Positions 22,330 through 62,479 of a stretch of DNA of 64,000 bases are shown one piece after another. Within the stretch, counting starts at the first letter, position 1, and the number at the start of each line of letters is the position of its first letter. A program made the position numbers and the translations under genes. The stretch comes from Takakia lepidozioides. Its lineage: Eukaryota; Plantae; Bryophyta. Under the pieces are notes generated by a model. That model was not told where the DNA came from. It was given only the letters and a program-made list of their open reading frames with translations, and did no database searches. The DNA is taken from NCBI GenBank assembly GCA_030704615.1, contig CM060731.1, positions 15,624,001 to 15,688,000 on the forward strand. Reading direction: 5' to 3'.

Positions 22330-22967
22330 AGGCCATCCCACTCCCCGCTGACTTCTCCAAATTGGCAGATTTCGACCTGGAAAATGAGTCAGCTACTTGT
22401 ACAAAGGAATTACGGGGGTAAAGTCCAAAAATTTCGCCAAAAAGCACCAGTAGTTGAGATTTAGGAGCCTAATTTTGCAGACGTGAACCAGTTAAAACGT
22501 GCCACTTGGAATATAGCTACTTCTTCTAGCCCTGCCACCTCGTTATTCTCGCCACATGGGCACTGGATAGGATTCACATGTGGCCCGCCAGCCATTCTGT
22601 AAAAATTGGTGACTGAGAGGTTATTTTCTCCTCTCTCTATCAAGGGGCCTGATTTGTGAGCTGTCGCTCCCAGGTGTTTCCCTTTTTTATTAATTTAAAA
22701 AAAGAAAAAAAGAAGAAAAACAAACAAGAGAAAACAAACAAATTATGGTGTCTGTTGATTCCCTGCTGGCATCCGTCGAGAAGGTGGACCCCTTGTGACA
22801 CCAATTGGTGGATTGAACCCAAAACCACTGGGCTTTAGTTCCACCCAATCGGGGTGCGAGTCTATGGCCACAAGGCTATGGCAAACAATGTCTTATGAGT
22901 ACATTCTGATTTCGACTAATAATAATATACGACGCTTTCCGAAGGAAGCGTGATCATGGTGTCTTCT

Positions 22968-23690
22968 TTATAGGAGAAGGGTCTCAAGAACCATGATATT
23001 TTTATGTACATTCTCAATCTCAGAAAGCACTTTGAGATTTTTCTCTTTGTTATTATCCGCTCCCTCTAGAGCATATTGGCGTGCTTGGCTAGGGCGGTGT
23101 AATCCACGCCGGTGGAATGCCCTGGTACGGGAGGGCGGTGCAATCCACTGCCATACCTTTTTTTTTGTTGCACCGGCTTTATGCAGGGGAAGGCCCCTCG
23201 TGTCGGGCATTCCTCGATATTCGGGCATTCCCTAGGGCTCCCGGCCGGTGCCCTTATATTGAGGAATGCCCTCCACTCCGGGCCTTCCCTTATAGGTAAG
23301 GTATTTTGCCAGCATGGCAAAGACCTTAAGGGCCCGGAAGGTACAGTGCAATCTACTAACTCTAAGGGACCTAAAAATGAACTAAGAAAAATATCATGGT
23401 TCTTTACGCATCTGGTAGGGACTCCACTAGCTATGTTTTTATAGTGTAATGCCCTGAGTGGAGGGCATTCCCGGATTTTCGCATTCCCGGATTTTCGGGC
23501 ATTCCCTCGGCCGTCCAGTTGGAAAGAAACGCTGAAAGAAAAAACTCATGGTCACGGGCTTTACGCAGCGGGAGTCCCCACCCCTCGGGTATACCTTGGT
23601 ATTCGGGTCGTACGCCCTCGGGTTACGAACCCTCACAGTGCGGAACACCCTCGTGGCGGGGACTCCCCCTATATATTAACGCTGGGTTAT
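22968..23690. repeat. Repetitive element rich in GGGCATTCC/GGAATGCCC motifs; shorter version of the element at ~61520-64000
   Basis: Motif repeated in both orientations. ctggtaggg|actccactagcta here, whereas ~1.9 kb of extra sequence lies between those words in the duplicated copy. Confidence 0.55.
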
Positions 23691-43241: not shown

Positions 43242-43679
43242 TCCACGTTACCTGAGGCAGCTCTGTGCACTGTGAATTCCACATGTCATCTGCCAATTTA
43301 TCTTTCGGTGGCCATTCATGCCAAGATTCAGCCAATCATAAAGCCTGAGCTCATGGGCCGCATTTCCAGTGTCCACACAGTAATCCCACAAAGTCTGGAT
43401 CCTGACCAGCATCTGGATTACCTCTCTCTTCCTCTACCGGATCATAGTCAGAGTCCGAGTCACATTCTGTCTCAGATTCAGACCCTACCGTGTTCTCAAC
43501 AACATCATCCAAACCAAGCATGGCACTTACTGTAACTGGCATAGGCTCGTCAAGGTCCACAGGAAGGCAAACATGAGAGGGCACGGTATGCACCCCAAGC
43601 CCAGCAAAGAAGGAGACAACATATGTATCAGACGCACTCACAATATCCCACGACTTGTCCACGACAGTACCATAACCAA

Positions 43680-43851
43680 TGTCGTGCGCATACATATCGC
43701 TACACAACTACATCGCTGTCCAAAACCACACAACACATGTGCACACCACACACTAGTATACCACTAGTCTACCACTAGTCCAGCCACTAGGCTACAACTA
43801 GTCAGTCACTAGGCTGCCACTACGCTGCCCACTATGGCAGTCACTAGTCCA
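43680..43851. repeat. Terminal repeat B2 (direct copy of B1)
   Basis: tgtcgtgcgcatacatatcgc...gtcactagtcca; matches 44185-44368 except for one 12-bp ccactagtccaa unit. Confidence 0.95.
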
Positions 43852-43855
43852 TTAA

Positions 43856-44182
43856 TGATAAAGAAGAAGAATACAAGCACAAGCTCATGCGAGCTCACAA
43901 AGCTGAAGCATAAACTCATGCATATATAACCTCATCACTCAAATACAAGTCAAGCCAAGTGCACCCCACGCCATGGGGAATCCACACTACGGCGCCATAG
44001 CTAGGCGCGGTGAGGCTCAACTCGAGAAAGATGAGCCTCCCGCGCTTGCCGTGAAGATAACCACTCCAGGGCCTAAATCTGCCTTGACCCCTGGATTGAC
44101 ACTTGGGCCAATCCCAAATGTCAATATGTAAAAGCTAGCTATTTCCTAGCTAGTTTCACACTAGTGGTAAAATAACTTGACA
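43856..44182. repeat. Terminal repeat A2 (327 bp)
   Basis: tgataaagaagaag...aataacttgaca; identical by eye to 54936-55262. Confidence 0.95.
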
Positions 44183-44184
44183 GC

Positions 44185-44368
44185 TGTCGTGCGCATACAT
44201 ATCGCTACACAACTACATCGCTGTCCAAAACCACACAACACATGTGCACACCACACACTAGTATACCACTAGTCTACCACTAGTCCAGCCACTAGTCCAA
44301 CCACTAGGCTACAACTAGTCAGTCACTAGGCTGCCACTACGCTGCCCACTATGGCAGTCACTAGTCCA
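44185..44368. repeat. Terminal repeat B1
   Basis: Direct copy of 43680-43851; separated from A2 only by the dinucleotide gc (44183-44184). Confidence 0.95.
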
Positions 44369-44384: not shown

Positions 44385-44632
44385 GCTGGTGCTTAGGTCC
44401 CTCTAAGTCCAGGTAGCCACAAGATGTGATAGTGACCATAGCCTCACTAAGTCCTCCACCACTATCCCTACTACACTCAAACTCGATAGATCAAGAGGCC
44501 GGGTGCAAGAGTTGCCCCATCGTTAGTCGCCGTCTTGCAACCTGTGAACTTGAGCTTGGGATCTCATGTATTGACTCCTATGAGCTTGGCCTCCCATGTC
44601 TTGTTAGCTGCCTCCAGTCATGTCCACTGCCA

Positions 44633-47600
44633 CTATCCCAAGCAGTGTGGACACAACCAATCTCCGTCAGGAACCTTCTCAAGAGGTGGTGTCAAGCATC
44701 CCATATGCCAACCCCTTGAGCATCGATCACACACCAGCATGGTGGCTGCCCCTTTGGCAGACCCACAGAGCATGCACCTCAAACCTGCAGGTACCACTGC
44801 CAAGTTTGGGTCAACTCTGCCATCGACATTGGGAAGGTGACATGGCGCACAATTACGCACATGGTCCTTCCAAGTCATGCCATCCCGACCCTCCAAGATC
44901 AGGACCCCTGAGGGCAACACCTCTCGAACCCTCAGAATAACACGCCCTGCAGTAACATCCAGAGTCGTAGGAGCAGTCTGCTGCAAATAAACATAGTCAC
45001 CAGGGCTAAACCTCCGAACCCCAGGACGATATCCTCCACCACGTATAGTGGCATACCTCAACGTATCACGGTGCTGTGCAATGGCAAGGTTCTCAAAAGC
45101 CATGGGCATGACTTTCTTGAACAACTCTGCACGCTGATCACATGCACGTACCCACACGTCCGGATCGTCAAGGTTAAGGACTTGAGCAGTGTCCCTACGA
45201 ATGGCTGCAGGCAAATCCGGCTCTCGGCCAAAGAGAAGGAAATATGGTGAGAAGGAGGCAAGTGATGCTTGTTTGCTGAACCTGTAGCCCATGGCTAACC
45301 AAGGAACCTGAAGATCCCAATCTCCTAGGTGTCCCTTCTGCAAGCCATACTTGCGCAAACCCCTCTTCACCGTCTGAACAACTCTCTCTGCTAAGCCATC
45401 GGCCTCAGGATGATCCCGAGAAGTGGTGCGGTGGTCTATCAAGGCTTTATCACACAAAGCCTGAAACTCCCCCAAGAACTCTCTCCCTTGGTCCGTGAGT
45501 ACCTCAGCTGGAGCACCAAATCGGCTAAGCACACGATCCAAGAATGCATACGCAGCCCCCTCACTAGCCTTGTCAGGCAATGGAACCAACTCAATCCACT
45601 TGGAGAAGTGCTCCACCATCACCAACACATATCTGTGGTGGCGCATAGTCAGTGGCAACGGTCCTGCGAAGTCAAGACTCCACCTGTAGCCCAATCCCAT
45701 GATAGGTAAAGGATGCAACTGTGGTGTAGGGGCGTTGAATGAAGCACGCACCCTGTCACACACCATGCACCTAGCCACAAACTGTTGCACCTCTGTATGC
45801 ATACCACGCCACCAATACTGCCCCTGCAGTAAACTGTGAGTGCGTCGCACTCCAAAATGCCCCAACTCCTCATGGGCATGCCGCACTAACCGTGCACGCT
45901 GTGTGGGGTGAGGCACAATCCTCACCCGACCATCCTCCCACACTCGAAGTAGGTGTATCCCCTCCCACTTGAACCTCTTGGCTCGTTGCAGGATCCGATC
46001 CCTCTCCCTGGCAGTCACAATGGCTGCCGTGTCTCCCGTGCGGAGGTAGTCCAACACAGCCGAATCCTCATGTATATCTCTGGCACCACCTAGCTCATCA
46101 CTAGCCTCAGGGTCCTCAGACACTCCGTCTACAGTCATCCCTGTTGTAGGTCCAATCTGACCTCCCGATGCCAAGATACACAAAAATGCAGATGCGTGCC
46201 ATCCCGGCACCATCTCCTCGTCCGTCTCACCATGCCACCGAGCTCCAGTGTCATCCTGCTGGCTCATGCATGGATTGCGACTCAATCCATCCGCATCCCG
46301 ATTGACCAAACCCGGTCGATGCACAACCTGAAAGTCATACTCCTGGAGTATAAGTGCCCACCGTGCAAGCTTCCCCGTAAGCTTGTCTGACTCCATCAAC
46401 CACTTGAGTGGCTGGTGATCCGTGACAAGGGTGAAAAGATTGCCGTATAGATAGCACCTGAAGTGTGCCACGGCCCACACTGCAGCTAAGCACTCTCCCT
46501 CATATGAGCTGTACTTAGCCTCTGCAGCGTTGTTCGAGCGGCTAGCGTAAGCCACTACGAACTCTCTTCCCTCATCATCCACCTGTGTGAGCACCGCTCC
46601 AAGCCCCAGCATGCTCCAATCCGTATGCAGCTGAAAGGGACGCCCCCTGATAGGTCGTCTCAAGATAGGCGCCGAGGTCAACCTCGCCTTGAGCTCTTGA
46701 AAAGCTCGTTCCTGCTCATCTTCCCACTGCCACTCCTGGTCCACCTTGGTCAGCTTGGTTAGAGCCTTTGCAATGGTACTAAATCCCTTGACAAACCGTC
46801 TATAATAGTTTGCCAACCCCATGAAAGCTCGAACTCGGCTCACATCCGTGGGGCGTGGAATTTGTGCAATGGCCTCTACCTTAGTCTGCTGTACCCCCAA
46901 TCCTCCAGGATATATCATGTGACCCAGATACTCAATCTGGTTGTGGAAAAACTTGCACTTCCCCGGATGCAACTTCAATCCGTGCGCTCTCAAGCGCTCC
47001 AATACCACCTGAAGGTGTCTCTCATGCTCCTCCATCGTAACACTAAAGATGATGATGTCATCTATGTAGCACCGAGCAAAGTCCACCCCTGCTAGAATCC
47101 TATCCATGACTCTCTGAAACTCTGCAGGAGCATTCTTAAGCCCAAATGGTAAGAACCGCCACTGATATAGGCAATCCTTGCCGTGCTCATTGATCCCCCA
47201 GAATGCCGTCTTCTGCTTGTCCGCCTCCTTGATTGGCAACTGGTGATATCCGGATCGTAAATCCAAAGTGCTAAAGGCCTTAGCATGCCCGATGGCATCA
47301 AAGATCTCCTCTGGTGTTGGCATGGCATACTTATCGGACTTGGTCTGACGATTTACAGGCCGGTAATCACCGCACATACGTCTCTCCGTCCAATTGCCAT
47401 AGACATCCTTCTTGGCTGGCATCACTGTGGCTGAAGCATACTCTCCACCAGAGAGCTCCACCAAACCTGCCTCCCAGAGATCTTGAGTCCTCATCTGAAT
47501 CAAAGACCTCTCCATGTCACTGTATCTATAGGGTCTCCGAAAGATTGGCGTGTCAGTGGCCAACTCAATACGGATCTCTTGACCCTTCAGTGCTCCCAAG

Positions 47601-47767
47601 TCCTTCAAACTGAAGGCAAAGCAATTCCTGTAAGCCCTCAGGAACCGCCGTATACGTCGTCTCTCTCCTCCGGTGACAATGGGTCCAATGTCAGGCTCCC
47701 AATTGTCCTCCGTAACTACAACCTTAAGTCCAGTGGGCTTAGAGGTAGAGGACGCGTCCCGTGGTTG
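44633..47767 (-). CDS. Pol: reverse transcriptase, RNase H, DDE integrase, C-terminal PHD finger; in frame with upstream ORF behind one TAG
   Basis: RMCGDYRPVN, LDLRSGYHQ, LPFGLKNAP, YIDDII (RT); LHTDWS, YSSYEGE, VTDHQPL (RH); H..GH..CMVC, WSLDFAGP, LTDQGREF, GLAER (INT); CMLC..CDRC..HMGC..CPHC (PHD, 44642-44779). Confidence 0.95.
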   Translation of the reverse strand, partial: QPRDASSTSKPTGLKVVVTEDNWEPDIGPIVTGGERRRIRRFLRAYRNCFAFSLKDLGALKGQEIRIELATDTPIFRRPYRYSDMERSLIQMRTQDLWEAGLVELSGGEYASATVMPAKKDVYGNWTERRMCGDYRPVNRQTKSDKYAMPTPEEIFDAIGHAKAFSTLDLRSGYHQLPIKEADKQKTAFWGINEHGKDCLYQWRFLPFGLKNAPAEFQRVMDRILAGVDFARCYIDDIIIFSVTMEEHERHLQVVLERLRAHGLKLHPGKCKFFHNQIEYLGHMIYPGGLGVQQTKVEAIAQIPRPTDVSRVRAFMGLANYYRRFVKGFSTIAKALTKLTKVDQEWQWEDEQERAFQELKARLTSAPILRRPIRGRPFQLHTDWSMLGLGAVLTQVDDEGREFVVAYASRSNNAAEAKYSSYEGECLAAVWAVAHFRCYLYGNLFTLVTDHQPLKWLMESDKLTGKLARWALILQEYDFQVVHRPGLVNRDADGLSRNPCMSQQDDTGARWHGETDEEMVPGWHASAFLCILASGGQIGPTTGMTVDGVSEDPEASDELGGARDIHEDSAVLDYLRTGDTAAIVTARERDRILQRAKRFKWEGIHLLRVWEDGRVRIVPHPTQRARLVRHAHEELGHFGVRRTHSLLQGQYWWRGMHTEVQQFVARCMVCDRVRASFNAPTPQLHPLPIMGLGYRWSLDFAGPLPLTMRHHRYVLVMVEHFSKWIELVPLPDKASEGAAYAFLDRVLSRFGAPAEVLTDQGREFLGEFQALCDKALIDHRTTSRDHPEADGLAERVVQTVKRGLRKYGLQKGHLGDWDLQVPWLAMGYRFSKQASLASFSPYFLLFGREPDLPAAIRRDTAQVLNLDDPDVWVRACDQRAELFKKVMPMAFENLAIAQHRDTLRYATIRGGGYRPGVRRFSPGDYVYLQQTAPTTLDVTAGRVILRVREVLPSGVLILEGRDGMTWKDHVRNCAPCHLPNVDGRVDPNLAVVPAGLRCMLCGSAKGAATMLVCDRCSRGWHMGCLTPPLEKVPDGDWLCPHCLG

Positions 47768-50700
47768 CTATGCTGCAACCTCTTGAGCAGTACTCCCTAC
47801 CTGCTCAGTCAATGACAAGGCATCATCCTGCCCCATCATCTCATCCTTGAGGACCTCCTCAACTCGAGAAGAATCCCCAACCTCATCCATCACAGCCGCC
47901 TTGGCTGCCAACTCCCTCTGAACCTCGAGCACCTCCCACGTGTGCCATGGATGCATGCACCCCGTGGTCCTCATATGCTCGCCCCCACTCACTGCCTGTA
48001 CCGTCTCGGTAGGCAGAGAGACCATTGAGGGAAGTGTATTCCGCACTCTGCGTTGCTCAGCTAGAGCCAAGCTGATAATCCAGGTCAAGCAATTGAGATC
48101 CATTGCTTGCCCCAACACTTGACGACGTGATGCCTCAGAAAGAGACGACACCGCCGTGGTACCAGTGGTAAAACCCATTGCCCGCTCACGCTCGTCAGCA
48201 TTAGGCTCCACTAACTGCTGCAACTGAGCATCCCACAGGAGGCCAGGTCCACTATCCCGGAAAGCATGCGATCCTGGGAAGCTGAGCAGTGTAGGTAATG
48301 CTGCTCGTGGTTGACCCACCTTGTTGACCACTGCCAAAGGCGAACGGTCATCGTGTCTCACACGTTGAGACTGCCTCCCTGTGTCCAGAATGTTATCCAC
48401 TGTGAGATGTGCTGGCCGCTGCACCCCATCAAATGCACGCTTGAGCAGTGCGGGTGGCATCATGTTAGTCCACCATAGCCGTGGACGATGAGCCCGTGAC
48501 CCCACTGTAGCTGCATCTAGCAACACTGCTGACCCAAGCCACGACCGGACTTGATGCACACTGGCCATCACCCTGGCCCGAGAATCGCCCATCAGTGGCA
48601 CATTCTCCAAGATGTATGCTGGAGATACAGCTTGATGAAGCTGCAAGTGGCGCAAAACCCGCACCATCTCCCAAAACAGACCCGACCTCGAGTCTCGCAA
48701 TCCATTGCCATGCCCGGCTGATGAATGCCCTTGGCAGGGCCAACCTGCCACTACCAGATCAATGGAGCCAACCCGCTCCAAATCCTGCGCCCCCAGCAAC
48801 GAAATGTCTGCTGGCAAGGCCTGCTGATATCCACGAATTGCAGACACCGACAACAACTCAGGGTACCGCTGCACCAACTGAGCAACATGGCGAAGTGAAA
48901 CGCGTCGTGCAGTCTCATCCCTCTCCACATACAGGTAACGCCGAACTCGTACACCTGCCTGTAACACAGCAGCCAATCCGGTGCTGATCCCGCCAAACAA
49001 GTCCAGAAGACAAATGCCTTCATCCGGAGACTGCCACACAATAGGTGTGGTGTCCAATGGAGACAATTGAGGTGGTCCTGGTGCAATCCCCACACTCTCC
49101 TCCTCTCCTGACGGTACAAAAGCCTCCACCCAGGCTTGTTGCACCCGTCGATCAGCATCCCGCTGCAAATCCTTGCTCGTGCCCCACAATGGAGTCTGAG
49201 CAACCATGGTAGGCAACTCCGCCATACCATACATGTCATCCTGCTCTCCCGGAGGTGGTACATCCTCTGAATGAGCATTGCCCTCAAGCAACTCTCTAGG
49301 CCAACTCACTGCCGCTGTGAATGCTGCTAGTGTCGGCATCTTGCCTCGCTGGGCAACCGCAACTCCTCCTATGAACGTCACAGGGAGCTGCACACGCCGG
49401 CCCTCCCCTGACTGCCATGCAGGCCTATAGGAAGCTGACTCCTCCCAAAAATCCAGGGTGAAGCCCATGGGGTACAACACTGCCCCACCAACCAGGACAT
49501 CGTATGAGACTGCGTCTGTCACAATGGCCTTGGCTCGCATCACTGAGCCATCTGTAGGGTGATCCGGCCGTAGTCTGATAGCCAACTCATGCCGTGTCAT
49601 GCCCCGAGCCTGCTCCGATCCTCCCAGAGACGTCTGTATCTGGAAAGGACAAGGCTCCATATCCGCCTCCGTGAGGCCCAAGCCTGCAATAGCAGCTCTG
49701 CCCAGCATCAGTGGCTGAGCTCCCGAGTCCAACAAGACTCGCAGTGGCCGGTACCTCTTGCCTGCCGGTCCACTCAAACAGAAAATGCCATCCTGGTTGT
49801 CTAACATGACAACTCCAGGTGTCACCATGGCGCGCTCAATGGCTGGCCTAGCTGGCAGCTCCATCAACCTGGCAGCTGCAGCTTGCCATGGCGCCGCCGT
49901 GGCAGTCTTGACCCTCAAATCCGAGGATCCCTCCGGCACTACACCTCCCACTATCTCCGCAGAAGATGAAGTAACCTCCCCACTCTCACAGAGTGTAGCT
50001 GCCAGCCTGAACACCTCAGCTGGTCTTACCCCCGGCGTCGCAATCATGGTAGCCGAGAACAATGGAGCCTGGCACACAGATGTGGCCGCTCCTAGCAGCA
50101 CACTAGCTGCCGTAGCCTTGGCAACACTAGGTAGTGGTGCTACCCGTGTAGCTCTCCCCAATGGCATAGTAACCTCCGCCTCGGTAACAGTCGGGCGAGA
50201 ACTAGGTGCCATGGATGGCGTCGACACTGTCTCCGCCAATGTGAATGACTGAGGAAGCCTAGCCTGACGGCTTGCCTCCCCACGCTGTGGATCCAACTCC
50301 ACCTCTGCACCTCGTGGCTCAGGAACTCGTGCTGCTCCTCGAGTCACGGCTGCAGCAGACTCCACCTGCACTAGTGGTAGTGCTGCTCCACACATGAATC
50401 CCATGCCTCCCATATCTCCTCCCTCAGGAGCAGGAGGTGGACCATCCGGCCTTAGAGCCGGTACCACCTGAGCTGTAGCCATGGCAGCGAGCCTCTGCTC
50501 TAGCTGCTGAAGCCGGTTGGCCATGCCTTGGTCAACACCCTGACCTCCGCGTCCTTGGCCACGTTGAGCTTGCCCTTGGCCTGCACCTCGTGGCTGGCCA
50601 CCTCGTCCCCTCTGGGCTGCTCCACCTCGCCCCCGGCCACCATTGTTCCCTTGGAACTGGCCTGGGCGCAACTCAGGATGCAAACCATAACACTGGCCTC

Positions 50701-51937
50701 TCCATGCCCGTGTTGCCACAATGCCCACACTGTAACTGTGCAGGCTGTGCATGTGCCGGCCCTTTGCCTCCCTCTGGAAATCCTTCTTGACATGGGGTCC
50801 TCCACATGTCCAGCACACCACATCCGCCCGTTGTTGGCCAGCAAATGAAGGGAGAGACCCCTGCATCTGAGGTCCTCTCTGCCCTTCCCTGAGCTTCACC
50901 TGAGCCCCCTTGTTGCCTTGAGCACGTTGAGGTAGTGGTTGGCTAGGAGCACCACTACCCCGTGGTGTCTCCTTAGCAAATCCCACCATGACCACTCGTT
51001 CCTCCACCATGTTGAGCTCTATCCGCTCTGCCAGCAAAAACACATTTGCTAAGGTGGGTTGGGCCGCTTGTAGGAGAGTTGCATCCCGCACCCTTCTCCT
51101 CAGCTCCTTGTCCAATATCCCATACCAGAATTGGACTGCCTGAGCTTCCGTAACCCCTTGGGTTACATTTATCAAGCGCCTCATGCGAGTGAAAGCCTCC
51201 CTCAAGCTCTCGGTCGGCTTCCGTTGGAACTCTTGCAAGCTCCGCAACTTCTCTGTCCTCACCCCTTGGTAGTTCCCTCTCAACTCTTCGAAGAACTCCA
51301 CAACAGGGTTGAAGGCAGGCACGGGTGCTAGTGCTGGTGCGGTAGTGGCTTGGGTGGACGTCGTAGCTACTGTACCACCAGTCCCACTGCTGCTTGCTGA
51401 AGCTGCCGGTGCAGCGGCAGGTGTAGCCACTGCCCTCGTGGCTCTAGTGCCCCTAGTGATGGAGACATAGTCGGGTGACCAGTACATCCTCCACTCCTCG
51501 ATCTCAACCTCATGCCCCCGCCTGAACTCATGGTAATCATCCATAGGCGGCCCCTCAAGGTGCTGAAACAGCCCTTTCCATGCCATGAACGGCGTAAATA
51601 GTTGTGGATTGCGCATTTGCTGCAAATCACACCAACTATCAAACTCTTGGATAAAATCATCCAACTCAATGGTGCCCACCGCCCCAGAGTACCTTCGTGG
51701 CCCCTTGGTAGCTCCATACATCTCCTCCATTGTGTCCCACAACAATGGCAAAGAAACAACTTGCACCGCCGGTATGAGCCCTCCTGATTCACAATCCGAA
51801 TCAGAACCTTCCGTGGAAGACACAGGAGGTGAAGGTGGCCTAAACCGCACACCTCGTCTCGTGTACCCACTAGTATCGCTAGTGCTCGAACCGGCACTGT
51901 CCCCAGCAACTAGTGGCACCTCCGTGTTGACACTCAA
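47768..51937 (-). CDS. Gag - aspartic protease - cytosine-5 DNA methyltransferase polyprotein (first ATG at 51730)
   Basis: Gag-like FQRKPTESLREAFTRMRRL and CWTCGGPH knuckle; protease VLLDSGA (~49715-49744); C5-MTase motifs I-X at ~48060-49020. Confidence 0.92.
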   Translation of the reverse strand: MSVNTEVPLVAGDSAGSSTSDTSGYTRRGVRFRPPSPPVSSTEGSDSDCESGGLIPAVQVVSLPLLWDTMEEMYGATKGPRRYSGAVGTIELDDFIQEFDSWCDLQQMRNPQLFTPFMAWKGLFQHLEGPPMDDYHEFRRGHEVEIEEWRMYWSPDYVSITRGTRATRAVATPAAAPAASASSSGTGGTVATTSTQATTAPALAPVPAFNPVVEFFEELRGNYQGVRTEKLRSLQEFQRKPTESLREAFTRMRRLINVTQGVTEAQAVQFWYGILDKELRRRVRDATLLQAAQPTLANVFLLAERIELNMVEERVVMVGFAKETPRGSGAPSQPLPQRAQGNKGAQVKLREGQRGPQMQGSLPSFAGQQRADVVCWTCGGPHVKKDFQREAKGRHMHSLHSYSVGIVATRAWRGQCYGLHPELRPGQFQGNNGGRGRGGAAQRGRGGQPRGAGQGQAQRGQGRGGQGVDQGMANRLQQLEQRLAAMATAQVVPALRPDGPPPAPEGGDMGGMGFMCGAALPLVQVESAAAVTRGAARVPEPRGAEVELDPQRGEASRQARLPQSFTLAETVSTPSMAPSSRPTVTEAEVTMPLGRATRVAPLPSVAKATAASVLLGAATSVCQAPLFSATMIATPGVRPAEVFRLAATLCESGEVTSSSAEIVGGVVPEGSSDLRVKTATAAPWQAAAARLMELPARPAIERAMVTPGVVMLDNQDGIFCLSGPAGKRYRPLRVLLDSGAQPLMLGRAAIAGLGLTEADMEPCPFQIQTSLGGSEQARGMTRHELAIRLRPDHPTDGSVMRAKAIVTDAVSYDVLVGGAVLYPMGFTLDFWEESASYRPAWQSGEGRRVQLPVTFIGGVAVAQRGKMPTLAAFTAAVSWPRELLEGNAHSEDVPPPGEQDDMYGMAELPTMVAQTPLWGTSKDLQRDADRRVQQAWVEAFVPSGEEESVGIAPGPPQLSPLDTTPIVWQSPDEGICLLDLFGGISTGLAAVLQAGVRVRRYLYVERDETARRVSLRHVAQLVQRYPELLSVSAIRGYQQALPADISLLGAQDLERVGSIDLVVAGWPCQGHSSAGHGNGLRDSRSGLFWEMVRVLRHLQLHQAVSPAYILENVPLMGDSRARVMASVHQVRSWLGSAVLLDAATVGSRAHRPRLWWTNMMPPALLKRAFDGVQRPAHLTVDNILDTGRQSQRVRHDDRSPLAVVNKVGQPRAALPTLLSFPGSHAFRDSGPGLLWDAQLQQLVEPNADERERAMGFTTGTTAVSSLSEASRRQVLGQAMDLNCLTWIISLALAEQRRVRNTLPSMVSLPTETVQAVSGGEHMRTTGCMHPWHTWEVLEVQRELAAKAAVMDEVGDSSRVEEVLKDEMMGQDDALSLTEQVGSTAQEVAA
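48060..49020 (-). other. C5-cytosine methyltransferase catalytic domain inside the retroelement polyprotein
   Basis: LDLFGGI (I), YVERD (II), ADI (III), DLVVAGWPCQ (IV), DSRSGLF (V), ILENV (VI), AHRPRLWWTN (VIII), ERERAMGF (IX), LGQAM (X), in unpermuted order. Confidence 0.93.
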
Positions 51938-52659
51938 CCGGTCATGAACATGTCCCTAACCCCCTCTTCACAAGGTAACCGGGTAGAGAACCTGTTGCGG
52001 CTTATGGTTTGGAATACTAAGTTCCTAACATAGCCTACACCTGTACCTGCATCCACCGCAAGCACTCCTATGGTTGGCTGGTCATCACCTCCAACCTCAC
52101 CACAGGAGAAACAATGATGGTCTGGCTGGTCATCACCCCAGCCTCACCATCGACAGCATGCTCTAGGACTGGCCGGTGATCAAATCCGGACCAATCACCT
52201 ATAAAAACAAGCGCCCACACAAAACTAGCATGGCGCACAGTCAAGCATGCAGGTATGGAGGGGATCCAAACACAAGAAATCAGATCGACAACTCCCCCAC
52301 ACCAAAAACAACTCCACGGTGTTGCTCCTGCAAGGACACCCCAGCCCAAACCCGGACTGACTCTTGCCTCCACCTACGGAAAGGTCTTGGCCTAATGAGA
52401 GGGTGGAAACTACGAGGAAGAGAAGCTAAAGCAATGCCTAACCCCAGCATGCTCTCATCCCAACACTCTGCCTCTCCTCTCTACCCTCACTTGCATGACC
52501 ATGGGAATATCATGAAGATACTCCTCAAACCGCCCTCCACGAGCTTCAAAATTTGGCCTTCCAGACCACATGCCAGTCCTTAGGCAGTCCACCAGTGCCT
52601 CCATGAGTCAGCACAGGTCAACACGGTCCACCACAGACCAGCACAGGCCTACACAGCTC

Positions 52660-54045
52660 ACTGGTCACAGCCGTCACAGTCCCACAGGCCACTGGGCACA
52701 GCCTGTCGCAGCCCCTCACAGCCTGTCACAGCCTCAAAGGCCTCAGGCACGGCCTGTCACAGCCCGTCACAGCCCGTCACAGCCCCAAAGGCCATGGGCA
52801 CGGCCTGTCACAGCCCCTCACAGCCCGTCACAGCCCCAAAGGCCTCAGGCACGGCCTGTCACAGCCCGTCACAGCCCCAAAGGCCTCAGGCATGGCCTGT
52901 CACAGCCCCTCACAGCCCCTCACAGCCTCAAAGGCCTCAGGCACGGCCTGTCACAGCCCCTCACAGCCCGTCACAGCCCCAAAGGCCATGGGCACGGCCT
53001 GTCACAGCCCCTCACAGCCCGTCACAGCCTCACAGGGCACAGGGCACAGCCTGTCACAGCCCATCACAGCCTGTCACAGCCTGTCACAGCTTGCCACAGC
53101 CCGTCACAGCCCGTCACAGCCTCAAAGGCCTCAGGCACGGCCTGTCACAGCCCCTCACAGCCCGTCACAGCCTCAAAGGCCTCAGGCACGGCCTGTCACA
53201 GCCCCTCACAGCCCCTCACAGCCTCAAAGGCCTCAGGAACGGCCTGTCACAGCCCCTCACAGCCCGTCACAGCCCAAAGGCCATGGGCACGGCCTGTCAC
53301 AGCCCCTCACAGCCCGTCACAGCCCCAAAGGCCTCAGGCACGGCCTGTCACAGCCCCTCACAGCCCCAAAGGCCATGGGCACAGCCTGTCACAGCCCGTC
53401 ACAGCCCCACAGGCCTCAGGGCACAGCCTGTCACAGCCCCGCACAGCCCGTCACAGCCCCAAAGGCCACTGGGCACAGCCTGTCACAGCCTGACACAGCC
53501 CGTCACAGCCCATCACAGCTTGCCACAACCTGTCACAGCCCGTCACAGCCCCACAGGCCAGAGGGCACAGCCTGTCACAGCCCATCACAGCCCATCACAG
53601 CTCCACAGGGCACAGGCACAGCCCATCACAGCCTGTCACAGCTTGCCACAGCCTGTCACAGCCCGTCACAGCCCCACAGGCCAGAGGGCACAGCCTGTCA
53701 CAGCCCATCACAGCCCATCACAGCTCCACAGGGCACAGGGCACAGCCTGTCACAGCCCATCACAGCCCATCACAGCCTGTCACAGCTTGCCACAGCCCAT
53801 CACAGCCCGTCACAGCCCCACAGGCCACTGGGCACAGCCCGTCACAGCCCGTCACAGCCCCACAGGGCACAGGGCACAGCCTGTCACAGCCCCTCACAGC
53901 CCGTCACAGCCCCAAAGGCCTCAGGCACGGCCTGTCACAGCCCCTCACAGCCCGTCACAGCCCCAAAGGCCTCAGGCATGGCCTGTCACACCCCTCACAG
54001 CCCGTCACAGCCTCAAAGGCCTCAGGCACGGCCTGTCACAGCCCC
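52660..54045. repeat. ~1.4-kb minisatellite of 10-bp tcacagcc-core units with higher-order repeats, in the retroelement 5' leader
   Basis: Around a hundred gtcacagccc/ctcacagccc/atcacagccc units punctuated by aaaggcctcaggcacggcct or aaaggccatgggcac. Confidence 0.97.
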
Positions 54046-54919
54046 TCCCTTCCTTCCTTGCACTCCCACACCTGAAAGTGCAAGCCTTCACCAGGCTGAT
54101 AGCATGCTCCACACATGCATTGCCCTCACATAAGGGAAGTCAGCCCTTCCCTCTTCCTTGCTTGCCCTCCAAGCTTGAAGATGGAAGCTTCAAGGAGCTG
54201 AATACATGCTCCACACATGCAACCTCTTCACACAAGAGATATCAGCCCCCTATCTTGGCTCCTTGGCTCCTTGATGCTCTCTAAGACAAGACTAAGCACT
54301 CCATAGCCTTTGCCAAGCTCCTGAAACCCTAAGGCTTACATTTCCAGCCACAAGACACTTCTCTTGTGGTGCAAGAGCTCTTCTTCCAAGCTCTGTAACC
54401 CTAGGTGTACATTCCATGGCCTTGCCGCACCTCTTAGCTCCTGTTCCAGCCCTGCTCTCGCCATGACAAGAGCCCTCTCAATGCTGAAGCTCGAGATTGA
54501 AACCCAATCTCACCATACTCCACAAAGTGCACTGATTTGCCCCAAGCCAAATCAGCCCTTTCGCTTGGTCTTGCAATCCTTCACACAATGACAGCTCGCA
54601 TTCCCAAGTCCAGTTCTCAGCTTTGCCACCAAAGCCACTATAACCTGCTCTTGACTGGTCCTCTTCCCAATCGTGCTTGCTCATGCATGTACACAATCTG
54701 AAACCATCAAGGTGCTCTGGAATTACCTACAGTATGGTGCTTTCATCTCTGAAGCTGAAGATCGAATGCCAAGGTTTACCACCTCGTAACCCACATCGCC
54801 TCCGCTTCTAACAACCAAGAGCTCCACGGTGCTCCTTGCATAACAACTTGGTTTCTCTCAATCTCAAGCAAAAACCACAAGTGCTACAACTAACTCGTAT
54901 CTAGCACTCATAGATACGA

Positions 54920-54936
54920 GCTCATCTTTCTCGAGT
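54920..54936 (-). other. Self-priming primer-binding-site candidate
   Basis: gctcatctttctcgagt abuts repeat A1 and is the perfect 17-nt reverse complement of actcgagaaagatgagc inside A (55100-55116; also 44020-44036). Confidence 0.7.
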
Positions 54937-55262
54937 GATAAAGAAGAAGAATACAAGCACAAGCTCATGCGAGCTCACAAAGCTGAAGCATAAACTCATG
55001 CATATATAACCTCATCACTCAAATACAAGTCAAGCCAAGTGCACCCCACGCCATGGGGAATCCACACTACGGCGCCATAGCTAGGCGCGGTGAGGCTCAA
55101 CTCGAGAAAGATGAGCCTCCCGCGCTTGCCGTGAAGATAACCACTCCAGGGCCTAAATCTGCCTTGACCCCTGGATTGACACTTGGGCCAATCCCAAATG
55201 TCAATATGTAAAAGCTAGCTATTTCCTAGCTAGTTTCACACTAGTGGTAAAATAACTTGACA
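54936..55262. repeat. Terminal repeat A1 (5' end of the retroelement)
   Basis: Identical by eye to 43856-44182; not followed by B. Confidence 0.95.
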
Positions 55263-58200
55263 CCAAATTCTTGGACGTTGGAAGAAGAAGCCATGTTAGG
55301 CAGGTACAAATGGTTCATTGCAACCTTTACAGTGGATCCCAGCACCCCTAGATCTTCCCAAGATTGGCTATGACCTGCAACATCTCTAGCAACTTGAGAA
55401 CTACGCAGAGAATATGCAAGACCCGAATCAAAACCAGAAATTGAACTCGCAATGTCATCAAGTCTCACATGCCCATAAATCGTTCTTACCTCTGGACCTT
55501 GCTACTGCCTTCAGTCTCATCGTTGGTGGCAGATGAGGATCCATCAAAATCAGGCCACACAGATAGCCTCAAACACTCATTTACCTCGGGAGAAAAGCCA
55601 TGTGGATCACCTTCCTCTTTACGATCAACCCACCCGAGAATCTCCGCAGCCTGACGACGATATAGGTACCGAAAATTGGCTGGTTTTGGAAATGCGGGCC
55701 ACTTCATCCGCTTGGCCCTCTTCAAGCACATAAGATAATCCTCATTCAAACACCCAATCAATTGGGCGACTTGCTCTAGAGAGGCGCCCAAAGCGCGAGC
55801 CCAATTGCCAATAACAAGAGACTCTTCTAGCAAATGCGCAGGAGCTGCTGGAGGCATGTCTGCAGAACCCATGTTGCCTCTCCTATATAGTCACCAGTAA
55901 CGGGCGTAACTAAGAGCCACTTCGCCTCGCGGCTACTGCCCCCTCTTGGGGATGGGCCCTATCTAAGCTGCCTAGGATAATAACTTAGCACCCAACAACA
56001 GTTCCCAGGAAATATTGCCAAATGTGAAAGGAATCCATACCAAATCGTAACAAACTATAAGATTAATCAGATAAGCCTTGAAATCAGCGGCCCAAGATAA
56101 CCAGCATTCCAAATTGTAATGAGCTATGAAATCACATAAGCCTCAAAATCAGCAGCCCCGGACAACAACATACCAAATTGTGACGAACTATGATTATTCC
56201 CAAGTATAAGCCTCAAAATCAGAGTCCCCCAATAACCAGCATACCAAATTGTTGTGAACTACCTATGTATGATTCCTAAGCCTAGAAATGTCCGATCTGG
56301 AGTACAAAATGCAGATAAACCAGAACCCACTGAGGGGGGAGGAGATGAAAAAAAAAGGGTTAAGTGTTAAGTACCTGGATTATATAAGGAAATACACAAC
56401 TCCACAATTCAACTGAGTCTTGTTCATTCCACACAAACAAAGGAAACAAGACTTGTTCAGTCCACAAAACAAAGGAAACAAGACCACACAAACAAAGAAA
56501 ACAAGACTTGTTCATTCATTCAACACAAAGAAAACCAGGGGCAGATGGAGATGGAGAGGGAGAGGGCCCACCTGGGCTTGGGCTGGCATGGCACTCATAA
56601 AGAGGGAGGGCGCTCGTGGAAGAAGACGGGTCAGGTAGCAAAGCGTGTCCGTGCAGCGGCGGCGTTGAATCCGGCGCACCGGGGTTATTATGCCCCACAG
56701 CGATCCACTACCTACCGACCTGCTTGTCAGATGCAAAAGTCTTCCTGCTCTGCAAGATGCCATCGGTGGCATGGACGAACGACTGAGGACGGAGCAGTGA
56801 TCTCGTGCTGCAACCGACCTCCGACTTCTCCTTGAGTTACGGCAAACTTTGAGGAGCTGCCATGGCTTGGTGGGGGTTGTAGCAAGTATTGAAGGAGGAG
56901 CTCTTGCATAATTTCACCTCTCGTGATGGAAGTCCACTGTTGGACGCAAATGTGCGAGTAGGAAACAAACACTGAAATTTCGATACAATCAACAACGTAA
57001 CTTGTTCTGACCACTATTGTACCCTAACAAACACTGCACGTTATGCTGCAATCAAAATCCCCAAATAGACATATGGCCACACTTACTTCTCCACTGCAAC
57101 CACAACTCCTCAAGTTTCTCATTTCACATCAGATGGTTTAACCTCATTGATCATCAATGCAGGCACGTGCACCACCGTTCTCAGCCGTGTGGGGGCCACA
57201 TGCAGTCGCTATATGTTCAGAACCTTGTACATGTCTACTGCGGCTTGGTTGATTGGTGAAGACTTCGGTGTAACCTCTTAGTACTACTCACTTCTGTCTG
57301 TTTCTCTGGCGGTGAGGCATCTCTACGCCTCTTCTGGCGCGTCTCCACCTCAGTATCGGGCTCTACATATCTGATACTGTGGATGCGAGAAGCTTATGGG
57401 TTGAAAGTGAAGCTCTGAATTGATGTATCATTGACCCTCAACAGCAGCATTGCTCCTGATGCTCCTTAGAGCTTGTACTCTGAAAGAGGGTTGGTTCAGG
57501 TTTCTCCTTGTCGCAGTTGCAAGATACTTAACATGCTACATCGAAATCGCGAGATTCCTCCAACTCTGCTATCAATCTTGCACCTAAATTTGTTGAGGTT
57601 AGTTTCTCTTGGTCATGATCTGAGGCATACTGGGACTTGCAGAGTAAAGGGTGGTGGGAGGGTATATGTTGTACTCGAGATCTTCATCCTTGAGATTCAT
57701 AAGCGACTGAAGGTCTTGCTAGGCCCGGGGTCCAGGATGAGAGAAGAACTTCCGGTTTCTCTTTCTATGGCTTTGTATTTTAGATGGACTAGGCTCGAGC
57801 GAGGAGAGGGATGACGACCGCGGGAGCAGCCAGTCATCCTCAAGCTAGGTTGCTCATGAATCAGAATTGACGGATATGTAGGAACACTTCGCTTCATGGA
57901 AAGAAAAATCCTGAGCGATCTTCCGAGAGTTGCAACTCCGTGAACTCTTAGAGATGGGTGCAAAATGTTTTCAAAGTCTCGGGTTCGGTGTGGAGGATGA
58001 ACCCACATGCGATGATGTGTGCAGAACTTATAATGGGATCATGACATACTCGAATGGTGTCACCGAATCTGAATCAAGCTAGCGAAAGTCTCATCCTCAA
58101 GACTACTGCACAACTGGGGATTTGGACCCTGACATGTATCCAGATTTCGGACGTCAGATGCGCCTACGGGAATCAAAATTTGCAGGCAGAATTAGACGAG

Positions 58201-58382
58201 AATTAGACGTGCGATACGGCATGCTTGTGCAGAATTCTGATACTCGGTAGCTGGAGCTGCATTACAAAGTGTCGGCCGGCAAATTGGTCTACAGAATGCA
58301 CATATGTAGGCATTCTACTGCATAGCCAATGTACGCACGGACTTTTGAAGTCGGTAGACGCTCCTCGTCGGGGGCATTACCA

Positions 58383-61026
58383 ATGGGAAGACGTCGGCAG
58401 ATTGATTTGCTCGCGGTGCTCTTACTGGCGACATGCCTGGTGTTCCCCGTACCTTGTCAGTCGTCGCCAAGCAACATGCCGTTGAACTCCACACTACAGG
58501 CAAGCTTGAATGCGACTTTGTTGTCACCTGGTGGAGTATTTGAGCTGGGATTTTACGCTGGGATGCGGTCAAAGTCAGCCTCCACCGTTTACACGCTTGC
58601 AATCTGGTACGCCCAGACATCTCCTGTGAAGACAGTGGTGTGGATGGCAGACAGATCTATGAACCTGAGCAACAACGCCACTCTAACATTGTCTGAACAA
58701 GGAGAGCTTCAGGTGTACGATGGCAACTTGGCTCCGCAACTCATGTGGACTTCCAATACAACAAATGTAAGCCGAGGATGATCCAGTTCGTATTTCGTGC
58801 CATTTTCCTGCAACCAAATGTCTGTCTGGGTTGTCTGGGGCGATTGCAAAACTAATACTGCTCAAAAAGTTTCTAGTCCCGACTGATTCTCTTAGACTGT
58901 GGGTTGTGCAGTTGAATGTGAGCCAGGCCGTCATGTTGGATACGGGGAACCTTGTCCTCCTCAACATAAGCAACAGTATCGCGTGGCAGAGCTTCGACAG
59001 CCCCACAGACACTCTCTTGCCAGGCCAGCCGTTTGTCGCAGCCGCCAACATAACCATGTTCGCATGGCAGAAACGCGGAGACTGGACCAAAAGTTTATAC
59101 TCGTTGAACTGGACCAGTGACTACAATCTCGATGCCTCCTGGCAATCTCCTTATCCCGGCTGGTCTAACTCAGTTGGTCCCAGCTATTGGAGCTTTTCGA
59201 CACCTTCCTTGTCCGCCGATTTGACATCCGAGGGTGTTTTCCAGGCAACCAATGCGACAGGAAATGTGACTGTGATAGGAACGAGCAGCGACGTGGGGTT
59301 GAAGAGTCGTCTACGACGGGTCACATTCGATTATGATGGCAACCTGCGCATGTACAGCTGGTTTGTTGGGAACTCCACAGAGTGGAGTATTGTGTGGGAA
59401 GCGATTACCGACATCTGCACCGTGTATGGAGAATGCGGTCCTTTCGCGATCTGCATAGCCGGAGGACAGTGTGAATGTCCTTCCGGGTTTCAGTTTGTTG
59501 ATGCCAATGACACCACCCAAGGGTGCACGCGGATCAAAAGCATTTCTCTTTGCAGCGCCGTCGACCAGGCTATGACTCTTGTGGAGTCTGTCGACTATCC
59601 CAATGGTGGTGATTACAACTACTATGGGAATGTGGACTTAAGTACCTGCATAGATCTATGCTTAAGCTCATGCTTCTGTCAAGCTTGTACAGTGACGACA
59701 CCAAATTCAAATGGGAATTATAGTTGTTGGCACAAGAAGGACTTCCTCCTCGACGGTCAATACAATAACGCACGCACCACCTACATACGAATGGCTCAGA
59801 CACATCACGGCCTCCCGTCTTCGCAGAAACTTGCAATACTGGGCGCAACACTAGGTGCAACGATCGTCTTTCTCGGAGTCTCGTTATGCATAGTTGGGTC
59901 TTTCATTGTCCGCCGAGAGATTAGAACTCGTCGTATCAGAAAGTTGGAAGAAAAATGGAAAGAGTCGCGAGGCACCATCGTAAAATTTACCTACGAAGAG
60001 ATTCGACTCGCGACCAGGAACTTTGCTGAGGAAATTGGGAAAGGGGGTTCTGGATCCGTGTTCAAGGGAGAGATTGGAGACCAGGTGGTTGTTGCCGTGA
60101 AACGATTGGACAAACTGAGCCCCGAGGAAACGGAATTCGTGAATGAGGTCGACACCATAGGACGCATTCACCACGGCAATCTGGTGGACCTCCACGGCTA
60201 CTGTGCTGCGGGCGACCACAGGCTGCTGGTTTACGAGTACATGGAGCGAGGCTCTCTTGACAGGGCCCTTTTCCGAGCTAATGAAAACAACGTACCCATT
60301 CTTGAATGGAGGTCTCGCTTCAAGATCGCTGTCGAGACAGCGAAGGGCCTCGCATATCTGCATGAGGACGTTAGAGGCCAACGCATTATCCACTGCGACG
60401 TCAAGCCTGAGAACATTTTGCTGGATTCCATGTTGTCCGCCAAGGTAGCAGATTTTGGGTTGGCCCGGATCATGAACAAGGACCAGACTCGCACCATGAC
60501 GATAAATATCCGAGGCACTCGTGGCTACGTGGCACCGGAGTGGACTACTGATCACTCCATCACCACCAAAACCGATGTCTACAGCTATGGAATGGTGCTG
60601 CTGGAGATCATCAGCGGCAGGAAGAACTTGAAATTCAACCTCGACAATGCCAATGCCGATGCCGATGCCGCCCCCGACTGGTACTATCCGCTTTGGGCAT
60701 TTTCGAAAGTTGAAATGGGAGCCTTCCTTGAGGTTGTCGATCCATTGCTGTGCGGAATTGTCAACGCTGAGGAGGTCGAAAGAGCTGTGCTGGTGGCGTT
60801 CTGGTGTATCAACGACAAGCCTCATCTGCGGCCTTCCATGGCCAAGGTTGTGCAATTTTTGGAAGGCCATATCCCTGTAGAGCTTCCAGTTCCACGACCC
60901 GTTTTACTAGACGATATGGTCGTTGCTACTGAGAACTTAGACTCCACCTCATTGAAGCTCTCATCGTCCTCTTCCGAGGCCTCACAACAGTTGCGTTTTT
61001 CTGAAGGCCATCCCACTCCCCGCTGA
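58383..61026 (+). CDS. G-type lectin S-domain receptor-like kinase, copy 2; exons 58383-58766 and 58912-61026
   Basis: Same architecture and intron as copy 1; intact ORF; longer C-terminus because of a 5-nt indel. Confidence 0.93.
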
Positions 61027-62479
61027 CTTCTCCAAATTGGCAGATTTCGACCTGGAAAATGAGTCAGCTACTTGTACAAAGGAATTACGGGGGTAAAGTC
61101 CAAAAATTTCGCCAAAAAGCACCAGTAGTTGAGATTTAGGAGGCTAATTTTGCAGACGTGGACCAGTTACAGCGTGCCACTTGGAATAAAGCCACTTTTT
61201 CTAGCCCTGCCACCTCGTTATTCTCGCCACATGGGCACTGGATAGGATTCACATGTGGCCCGCCAGCGATTTTGTAAAAATGAGAAAACAAACAAATTAT
61301 GTTGTCTGTTGATTCCCTGCTGGCATCCGTCGAGAAGGTGGACCCCTTGTGACACCAATTGGTGGATTGAACCCAAAACCACTGGGCTTTAGTTCCACCC
61401 AATCGGGGTGCGAGTCTATGGCCACAAGGCTATGGCAAACAATGTCTTATGAGTACATTCTGATTTCGACTAATAATAATATACGACGCTTTCCGAAGGA
61501 AGCGTGATCCTGGTGTCTTCTTTATAGGAGAAGGGTCTCAAGAACTATGATATTTTTCGGTACGTTCTCAATCTCAGAAAGCACTTTGAGATTTTTCTCT
61601 TTGTTATTATCCGCTCCCTCTAGAGCATATTGGCGTGCTTGGCTAAGGCAATGTAATCCACGCCCAGGGAATACCCTGGTACGGAGGGCGGTGCAATCCA
61701 CTTTGGTGGAATGCACTGCCATACCTTTTTTTTGTTGCACCGGCTTTTTGTAGGGCATTCCTCGATATTCGGGCATTCCCTAGGGCTCCCGCCAGTGCCC
61801 TTATATCGAGGAATGCCCTCCACTCTGGGCCTTTCCTTATAGGTAAGGTATTTTGCCAGCGTGGCAAAGACCTTAAGGGGCCGGAAGGTACAGTGCAATC
61901 TACTAACTCTAAGGGACCTAAAAATGAACTAAGAAAAATATCATGGTTCTTTACGCATCTGGTAGGGCTATTACTGTCTTCTGGTAGGAAGTCGGACAGT
62001 GGACACTTTTGTGACACCAGTCACTGAATTGAACCCACTACCGGCGCTTCTTTTTTAGGCGAAATGGAGCCTAAAAGCGATAAAAAAACAAAGGGCTACC
62101 ACAGCCCTATGTAAAATCCTAGGAAAAAAAACAAAAAATGCGCCCAAAAAAAGGGGTGTGCGCAAGGGCTGGTGCTAGAAAGCTCCAGGGGAACATGCAA
62201 ATTGCGCCAGAAATACACGTTCCTCACAACCCTACATCTAGTGGCTGTCGTCCCATCGCGCGATCAACGGTAGAGATCTCGCCATGTAGCACGACCTGGA
62301 CCGTTGGATCGCCAGGGTTTTGGCCGCCTCCAGGCCAGGCCGTCGCCACTGCGCACAGCCCTACGGAGCTTCACCATCGCCATCTCTCCTCGCAGCTTGC
62401 TTTCAAAATTTTGCCTAAGATCTTTATACTGTAGTTTTTTTTAGTGCCATATTACTCTTTCGCATCGGGCTCTGGTACC

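Follow-up and report, generated by a model that had tools for sequence, protein, structure and literature searches.

A conserved in-frame TAG with a tobamovirus-type context is probably a leaky stop between the methyltransferase and reverse transcriptase of a land-plant Gypsy element

When a retrotransposon encodes its Gag, protease and a DNA methyltransferase in one reading frame and its polymerase in the next, with a single stop codon between them, the question is how the second frame comes to be translated. Such an element lies on the minus strand of a 64,000-nt stretch of the moss Takakia lepidozioides (GenBank assembly GCA_030704615.1, contig CM060731.1, positions 15,624,001 to 15,688,000). 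This whole stretch is called the window, and all positions are given in its coordinates. The first open reading frame (ORF1) includes a DNMT3-like cytosine methyltransferase (DNMT), and the second (ORF2) the reverse transcriptase (RT). The TAG between them, conserved in the clade of Gypsy-DNMT3 elements to which this copy belongs, is probably a stop programmed for occasional readthrough by a tobamovirus-type signal (UAG-CAR-YYA).

The minus strand at the junction reads GCA TAG CAA CCA CGG. The stop-to-stop frame 51955-47768 (1395 codons) and the frame 47767-44633 (1044 codons) are in the same frame and directly adjoin each other; with TAG read as X, 2440 residues were obtained with a single X and no other break. 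A preliminary description of this DNA, made from the sequence alone, had reported two same-frame ORFs separated by one TAG (47770-47768), the context TAG CAA CCA and 53 open codons (QPRDASS...RNCFAFS), all of which were read as claimed. Its ORF lengths of 1389 and 991 amino acids (aa) rest on bacterial TTG starts. Counted from the first Met, which is residue 76 (51730) and in the alignment the same start as in the Marchantia homologues, ORF1 has 1320 aa, and the predicted readthrough product has 2365 aa instead of the approximately 2430 aa given earlier. The first Met of ORF2 in the window copy is codon 85.

In tobacco mosaic virus (TMV), CAR-YYA 3′ of UAG is the defined signal, and it gave 32% readthrough in plant reporters (PMC2754532; here and below, published systems are described from passages of the sources cited). 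The earlier naming of UAG-CAR-YYA as a tobamovirus-type signal that works in plants agrees with these reporters. With UAA in place of UAG, readthrough was lower yet kept, and it was abolished when the first C was lost (PMC2754532). On both strands of the whole window, CARYYA follows 2 of the 1629 TAG triplets; in five such elements, CARYYA made up 0.2-0.4% of in-frame codon pairs and CARYY approximately 1%. Taken alone, the TAG-CARYYA match of a single copy is suggestive against chance.

Relatives were collected by a scan of metagenome contigs, of which the best 80 of 307 confirmed loci were used. Sixty-eight of these inform the junction, namely 32 of a family named Sphagnum-type from the match of its linker to the S. 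fallax protein P0029 (family S), 4 of a second lineage, the decayed locus L034, and 31 of a family with a single ORF (family F); at the remaining 12 the junction was not spanned or not aligned across. Further copies of the window's exact family came from sequencing-run contigs only. The nearest named relatives of the element are from Marchantia, Calypogeia and Sphagnum. The 32 Sphagnum-type loci cross the junction and represent 30 distinct copies, some of them possibly one copy assembled twice, with 21 TAG, 8 TAA, 1 TAC, and no CAG or CAA. The TAA variants fit readthrough, since the TMV signal also works with UAA (PMC2754532). The hexamer after the stop was CAACCC in 30 of the 32 loci. All five second-lineage loci carried the stop, in the form TAG CAG TTA (L022 and L023) or TAG CAA TCA (L029, L063 and L081), and L034 had TAG CAA CCA. 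In family F, serving as the control, the frame was open, and the most-hit CAG had turned into a stop in only 6 of the 31 loci. Among stored proteins, 35 with a complete DNMT and without an RT match, including three partial Marchantia models and one outlier, end 69-138 residues past the DNMT, and six members of a Marchantia cluster share one C-terminal residue position. A sense codon in most copies had been named in the preliminary description as the mark of a private mutation; a stop was found in 29 of the 30 distinct copies of the related family, and CAG in none. In run X1, possibly the source sample, the T of TAG showed no variant at or above 2% at a depth of approximately 18,000 at 47767, each listed change of a plus-strand A falling at another site, with sites near TAG varying by 9-41%; 40 of the 51 variants are covered by this result, and changes at the other two bases of TAG are thus not fully excluded.

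Searches elsewhere yielded fewer relatives. Among prokaryote genomes, six loci were obtained; L081 was a true relative, and the other five were weak bacterial methyltransferase matches and were dropped. The stop-bearing element at L081 (1-9218) fills a 9285-bp contig of a cyanobacterial metagenome-assembled genome, where its ORF2 is annotated as bacterial, and is likely to be eukaryotic contamination. Viral contigs contained no relative with a DNMT alignment and one distant RT match, which was not used. No long fused protein exceeded 55% identity to ORF2 among the 120 listed of 776 matches, a weak test as multi-RT models crowd this list.

Eight representatives were compared around the stop; they are related and stand for three or four independent lineages at best. 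TAG-CA was invariant, the next three bases were always R-Y-Y, and the sixth base was A in 7 of the 8, so that TAG-CAR-YY is present in all of them and the full CAR-YYA in seven. The second codon past the stop encodes Pro, Leu or Ser across the representatives, which argues that the nucleotides are kept and not the residue. In the 45 nt on each side of the stop, ungapped identity between lineages was 24-44%, which is near random, and synonymous sites were saturated, with a proportion of synonymous differences (pS) of 0.6-0.9. The distance from DNMT to RT was 261, 318, 321, 384 or 390 nt, and ORF2 adjoins ORF1 in frame in every lineage. Selection acting on a nucleotide signal would be expected to leave such a conserved island. 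Given the conservation across lineages, a chance origin of TAG plus hexamer is untenable, and the programmed readthrough suggested in the preliminary description gains support from a stop and hexamer kept across saturated lineages.

Conserved RNA structure 3′ of the stop was also looked for, with few sequences and low power. None of 25 pairs showed a compensatory change in five related sequences, and the consensus fold of seven sequences 3′ of the stop reached only -6.5 kcal/mol. Folding z-scores for positions +1 to +100 ranged from -0.7 to -3.7, with -0.9 for the window element. The signal looks like the hexamer alone, without a supported conserved downstream structure.

ORF2 was intact in 4 of 7 elements checked, with 1044 codons in the window and 1047 in L022, L029 and L081; the other three are decayed Sphagnum-type copies. 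Over ORF2 codons 86-290, the ratio of nonsynonymous to synonymous differences (pN/pS) was 0.06-0.13 among L022, L029, L063 and L081, which places ORF2 under purifying selection. The intact ORF2 behind the stop in relatives, together with a window copy that has identical A repeats and a target-site duplication (TSD), indicates that RT and integrase do get made.

The DNMT tree, which contains no Klebsormidium nitens DNMT, joined every row ending before RT in one group of 22 (support 90/85) and left the fused proteins outside. In the RT tree, the stop-bearing rows fell in a group of 19 (SH-aLRT, the approximate likelihood-ratio test, 100). Both trees were midpoint-rooted. Three K. nitens RTs, possibly from elements other than the KnitGypsy-Dnmt3 copies of that alga, were placed outside the stop clade among fused relatives. 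More distant relatives of the element have a single ORF. The simplest reading would be one gain of the stop from a single-ORF ancestor with occasional loss, the order of events being inferred. As a separate observation, a related group (P0035-P0037, P0039-P0041, P0044-P0049 and P0051) has the DNMT between RNase H and integrase and not before RT; it includes a named member from the green alga Hariotina reticulata.

By the proposed mechanism, termination at TAG would be the usual outcome and yield Gag-protease-DNMT; in a smaller share of cases the ribosome would place an amino acid at this codon and go on into RT-RNase H-integrase-PHD. By analogy to the TMV reporters, the rate may be a few to some tens of percent. 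The protease would then be expected to cleave the polyprotein. TMV-type readthrough would imply an excess of Gag, protease and DNMT over RT and integrase, with the DNMT close to Gag in copy number and perhaps located in the particle.

Several observations weigh against a leaky stop. The Sphagnum-type hexamer CAA CCC is off the consensus at its sixth base and is followed directly by ATG, and a Met also occurs at codons 5 and 14 after the stop in L023 and L029. In one divergent contig of run X11, the C after the stop (47767) is changed. L034 is a degenerate copy whose stop was chosen because QPR follows, and the Marchantia junction is known from protein ends only. Support for the stop-bearing DNMT clade is only 90/85, and the RT group of 19 also holds the fused protein P0073 and the Coleochaete scutata transcript protein P0058, which is open across the homologous place; in both, the stop may have been lost or shifted. 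A junction of similar appearance in Tca2 was not sufficient to direct readthrough (PMC2194720). Readthrough was deduced here from sequence. Finally, five gene models (4 from Marchantia and 1 from Sphagnum, known as models only) join DNMT to RT and skip the junction.

These models would suit partial splicing, in which the stop is lost with an intron, or its AG is used as an acceptor, in some transcripts to give the full polyprotein; the Ogre elements provide a precedent at the equivalent position (PMC6317226). In the window, 42 frame-keeping GT-AG pairs bracket the stop, and six of them have better-fitting ends. Plant introns are U-rich, whereas T makes up 21-25% of the six candidates and, in the eight representatives, 18-33% of the 40 nt upstream of the stop. 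Moreover, the five models use different joints, TAA in 8 of the 30 Sphagnum-type copies would abolish the acceptor, and splicing leaves the exon-side CAR-YYA unexplained. A 2173-nt contig of run X12, which was only guessed to be RNA, crosses the stop without gap or joint. On 44400-52300, 0 reads were obtained from three raw single-cell RNA runs, of each of which approximately 1% was read; at such depth this is no test. Splicing is on this evidence an unlikely source of the polyprotein.

Somewhat less probable still is an independent route to ORF2, by an internal promoter or by ribosomes that reinitiate past the stop. A minor promoter has been described at the Tca2 junction (PMC2194720), and in the Sphagnum-type family ATG is the third codon after the stop. 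However, the start is not conserved, the first Met of ORF2 in seven representatives being at codon 3, 5, 14, 85 (window) or 117 (L022, L063 and L081). Where it is late, the residues upstream of it are under strong purifying selection (pN/pS 0.05-0.19 for codons 21-85 within the second lineage), which makes a separately initiated Pol unlikely. Nor would a separate start explain the hexamer or the in-frame abutment of the ORFs despite a spacing of 261-390 nt.

It is very improbable that the stop is an old fixed lesion and ORF2 dead, with single-ORF relatives moving the clade in trans; such relatives (family F) do occur in the same metagenome collection, but the intact ORF2 in four of seven elements and the pN/pS of 0.06-0.13 largely refute it. 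A private C-to-T nonsense mutation or assembly error in the window copy, for which the frequent change of CAG to TAG in these methylated families (CHG C>T approximately 23%; 6 of 31 at the hottest family F codon) and the otherwise damaged zinc knuckles of this copy might speak, is refuted by the stop in 29 of 30 copies of another family, in 5 of 5 second-lineage loci and at the Marchantia protein ends, with no CAG in any junction-spanning copy.

The leaky-stop element was compared with known systems. KnitGypsy-Dnmt3 of K. nitens (de Mendoza et al. 2018, PMC5890265) likewise has an intronless DNMT3-like domain in a Gypsy-type element and DIRS-type A1...B1-A2-B2 repeats around Gypsy domains. The preliminary description had missed this kinship and the split direct repeats. 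Its DNMT shares an ORF with RT and RNase H, whereas in the window element the TAG separates them. The passages on KnitGypsy-Dnmt3 contain nothing on land-plant copies (0 matches for Marchantia), a PHD finger (0 matches) or the stop described here. The DNMT of the K. nitens element showed no activity in yeast, a result its authors call inconclusive (PMC5890265); in the window DNMT the catalytic motifs are present and its activity is putative. A 2026 preprint mentions Gypsy-DNMT3 as streptophyte elements.

The TMV signal resembles the window junction in having UAG then CAR-YYA, with enzyme domains downstream and, in TMV, tolerance of UAA (PMC2754532). The junction differs in lying in a nuclear retrotransposon, in having a 5′ codon other than CAA in most lineages, and in that one family has CAA CCC. 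In Tj1, Tosmo1-3 and Tcry1 (bioRxiv 10.1101/2022.12.06.519325), Tca2 (PMC2194720), SIRE1 and RIRE2, the balance between structural proteins and enzymes is set by a conserved in-frame stop, as proposed here. This stop is a UGA between Gag and protease in Tj1, Tosmo and Tca2 (same sources) and lies between pol and env in soybean SIRE1; rice RIRE2 is a candidate in-frame-stop element (both as cited in PMC2829016, PMC2194720 and PMC2754532). As far as the passages describe them, none of these elements has a DNMT upstream of the stop, unlike the window element. SIRE1 and RIRE2 have CARYYA-like contexts. Ogre (Neumann et al. 2019, PMC6317226) shares the position of the switch after Gag-protease and before RT, but a region of approximately 274 bp between its ORFs is spliced, whereas the ORFs of the window abut at one codon.

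A break after Gag-protease is therefore not new in itself, since Ogre has one; the new part is the conserved tobamovirus-type signal at the DNMT/RT border of Gypsy elements with split repeats. Neither this stop nor these land-plant elements were found described in a full-text literature search, most subscription papers, including the main survey of such signals (Gao et al. 2003), being outside its reach. Verified plant readthrough was all viral as of the 2009 reporter paper (PMC2754532), and SIRE1 is cited elsewhere as an exception. The junction is a well-conserved endogenous candidate for stop-codon readthrough in plants. The model liverwort Marchantia polymorpha also has it, and its full-length ORF1s carry annotations as hypothetical genes. 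The element extends the split-repeat, target-duplicating Gypsy-DNMT3 elements from Klebsormidium into land plants. That this clade keeps its DNMT on the Gag side of the switch suggests a function at high copy number and not a passenger domain, which bears on the purpose of retrotransposon DNMTs. A tentative, on balance doubtful, history would be a single acquisition of the leaky stop, behind a captured DNMT3, in an ancient streptophyte clade of Gypsy elements with split repeats, so that each Gag brings a methyltransferase; the DNMT in the particle might methylate new cDNA or the insertion site, and the PHD finger on the rare integrase might read host chromatin. If true, translational recoding would set the dose of an epigenetic enzyme, and Marchantia would offer a conserved CAR-YYA system of endogenous origin for testing.

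The features of the window element are listed in Table 1. The switch had been placed after protease-DNMT in the preliminary description, and Pfam and motifs bear out this domain order. The order protease-RT-RNase H-integrase is of the Gypsy type. The Gag match in ORF1 was weak in Pfam (E 0.01). Against solved structures, the best match of the DNMT domain was human DNMT3A (E 1.4e-11), and DNMT3A made up the top 16 of 45 matches. The names of the DNMT motifs are our presumptive assignments, and LLDSGA is presumably the protease active-site motif. A Pfam scan of ORF1 and ORF2 found an rve integrase and no tyrosine recombinase family, unlike what defines the DIRS/Ngaro elements. In chromoviruses a chromodomain occupies the C-terminus of integrase, which is the position of the PHD finger here, a candidate targeting module. 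The zinc knuckles are intact in Marchantia homologues; here, small indels that offset one another have scrambled them, and the frame is restored afterwards. Either mutation or assembly error may be the cause. With this damage, the window copy may itself be inactive.

Table 1. Coordinates of the retrotransposon features in the window
Feature	Position	Strand	Evidence or remark
In-frame TAG closing ORF1, likely leaky stop	47768..47770	-	Read directly; kept in relatives
CAA CCA, match to the CAR-YYA readthrough hexamer	47762..47767	-	Motif definition from passages of PMC2754532
ORF1, 1320 aa: Gag, two CCHC knuckles (damaged here), aspartic protease, DNMT3-like domain, acidic linker	47768..51730	-	
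Zinc-knuckle region, limits approximate	50690..50815	-	Knuckle residues spread over frames
Protease motif LLDSGA	49718..49735	-	Aligned homologue P0031 carries PF13650
C5 cytosine methyltransferase domain, motifs I, IV (PCQ), VI (ENV), VIII and X in order	48041..49018	-	PF00145, E 1.7e-12
ORF2, 1044 aa: RT, RNase H, integrase, C-terminal PHD finger	44633..47767	-	Pfam and motifs
RT motif YIDD	47057-47068	-	
PHD finger at integrase C-terminus	44642-44776	-	Pfam; common in relatives
Repeat A1, terminal, TG...CA, 327 bp	54936..55262	-	100% identical to A2 over 327 bp
Repeat B1	44185..44368	-	93.5% to B2, no mismatch, one gap
Repeat A2	43856..44182	-	100% identical to A1 over 327 bp
Repeat B2, element end ...GACA	43680..43851	-	93.5% to B1, no mismatch, one gap
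TSD TTGG, 4 bp, left copy	55263..55266	-	
TSD TTGG, 4 bp, right copy	43676..43679	-	
Tandem-repeat array, 1.4 kb, 10/41/51-nt units, in 5′ leader of element	52609..54047	.	

The whole element is 11,583 bp long, runs from TGTC to GACA and is flanked by a 4-bp duplication; of 5 related loci examined, 4 have these ends and a 4-bp TSD as well. Since its A repeats are identical and the target is duplicated, the window copy appears to have been inserted recently. Split direct repeats of the DIRS/Ngaro-like form A1..B1-A2-B2 were found in the window element and in L032, L040, L048 and L054. CTCGAG comes directly after A1, B1 stands before A2, and the element runs on into B2, so that its ends are not simply those of an element with two long terminal repeats. 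By eye, no obvious primer site after A1 or polypurine tract before A2 was seen, no tRNA search having been made. A TSD or priming route for the split-repeat Gypsy-DNMT3 layout was not met in the literature passages on KnitGypsy-Dnmt3. Split repeats together with a DDE integrase occur in both stop-bearing and single-ORF families.

Apart from the element, the neighbouring genes point to a land plant, G-type lectin receptor kinases having a land-plant range, and the neighbouring kinase was placed only in Streptophyta. The window contains two ORFs for these G-type lectin receptor kinases (20107-22329 and 58771-61026), both of which lie inside a duplication of approximately 98% identity (18277-23420 and 57174-61967).

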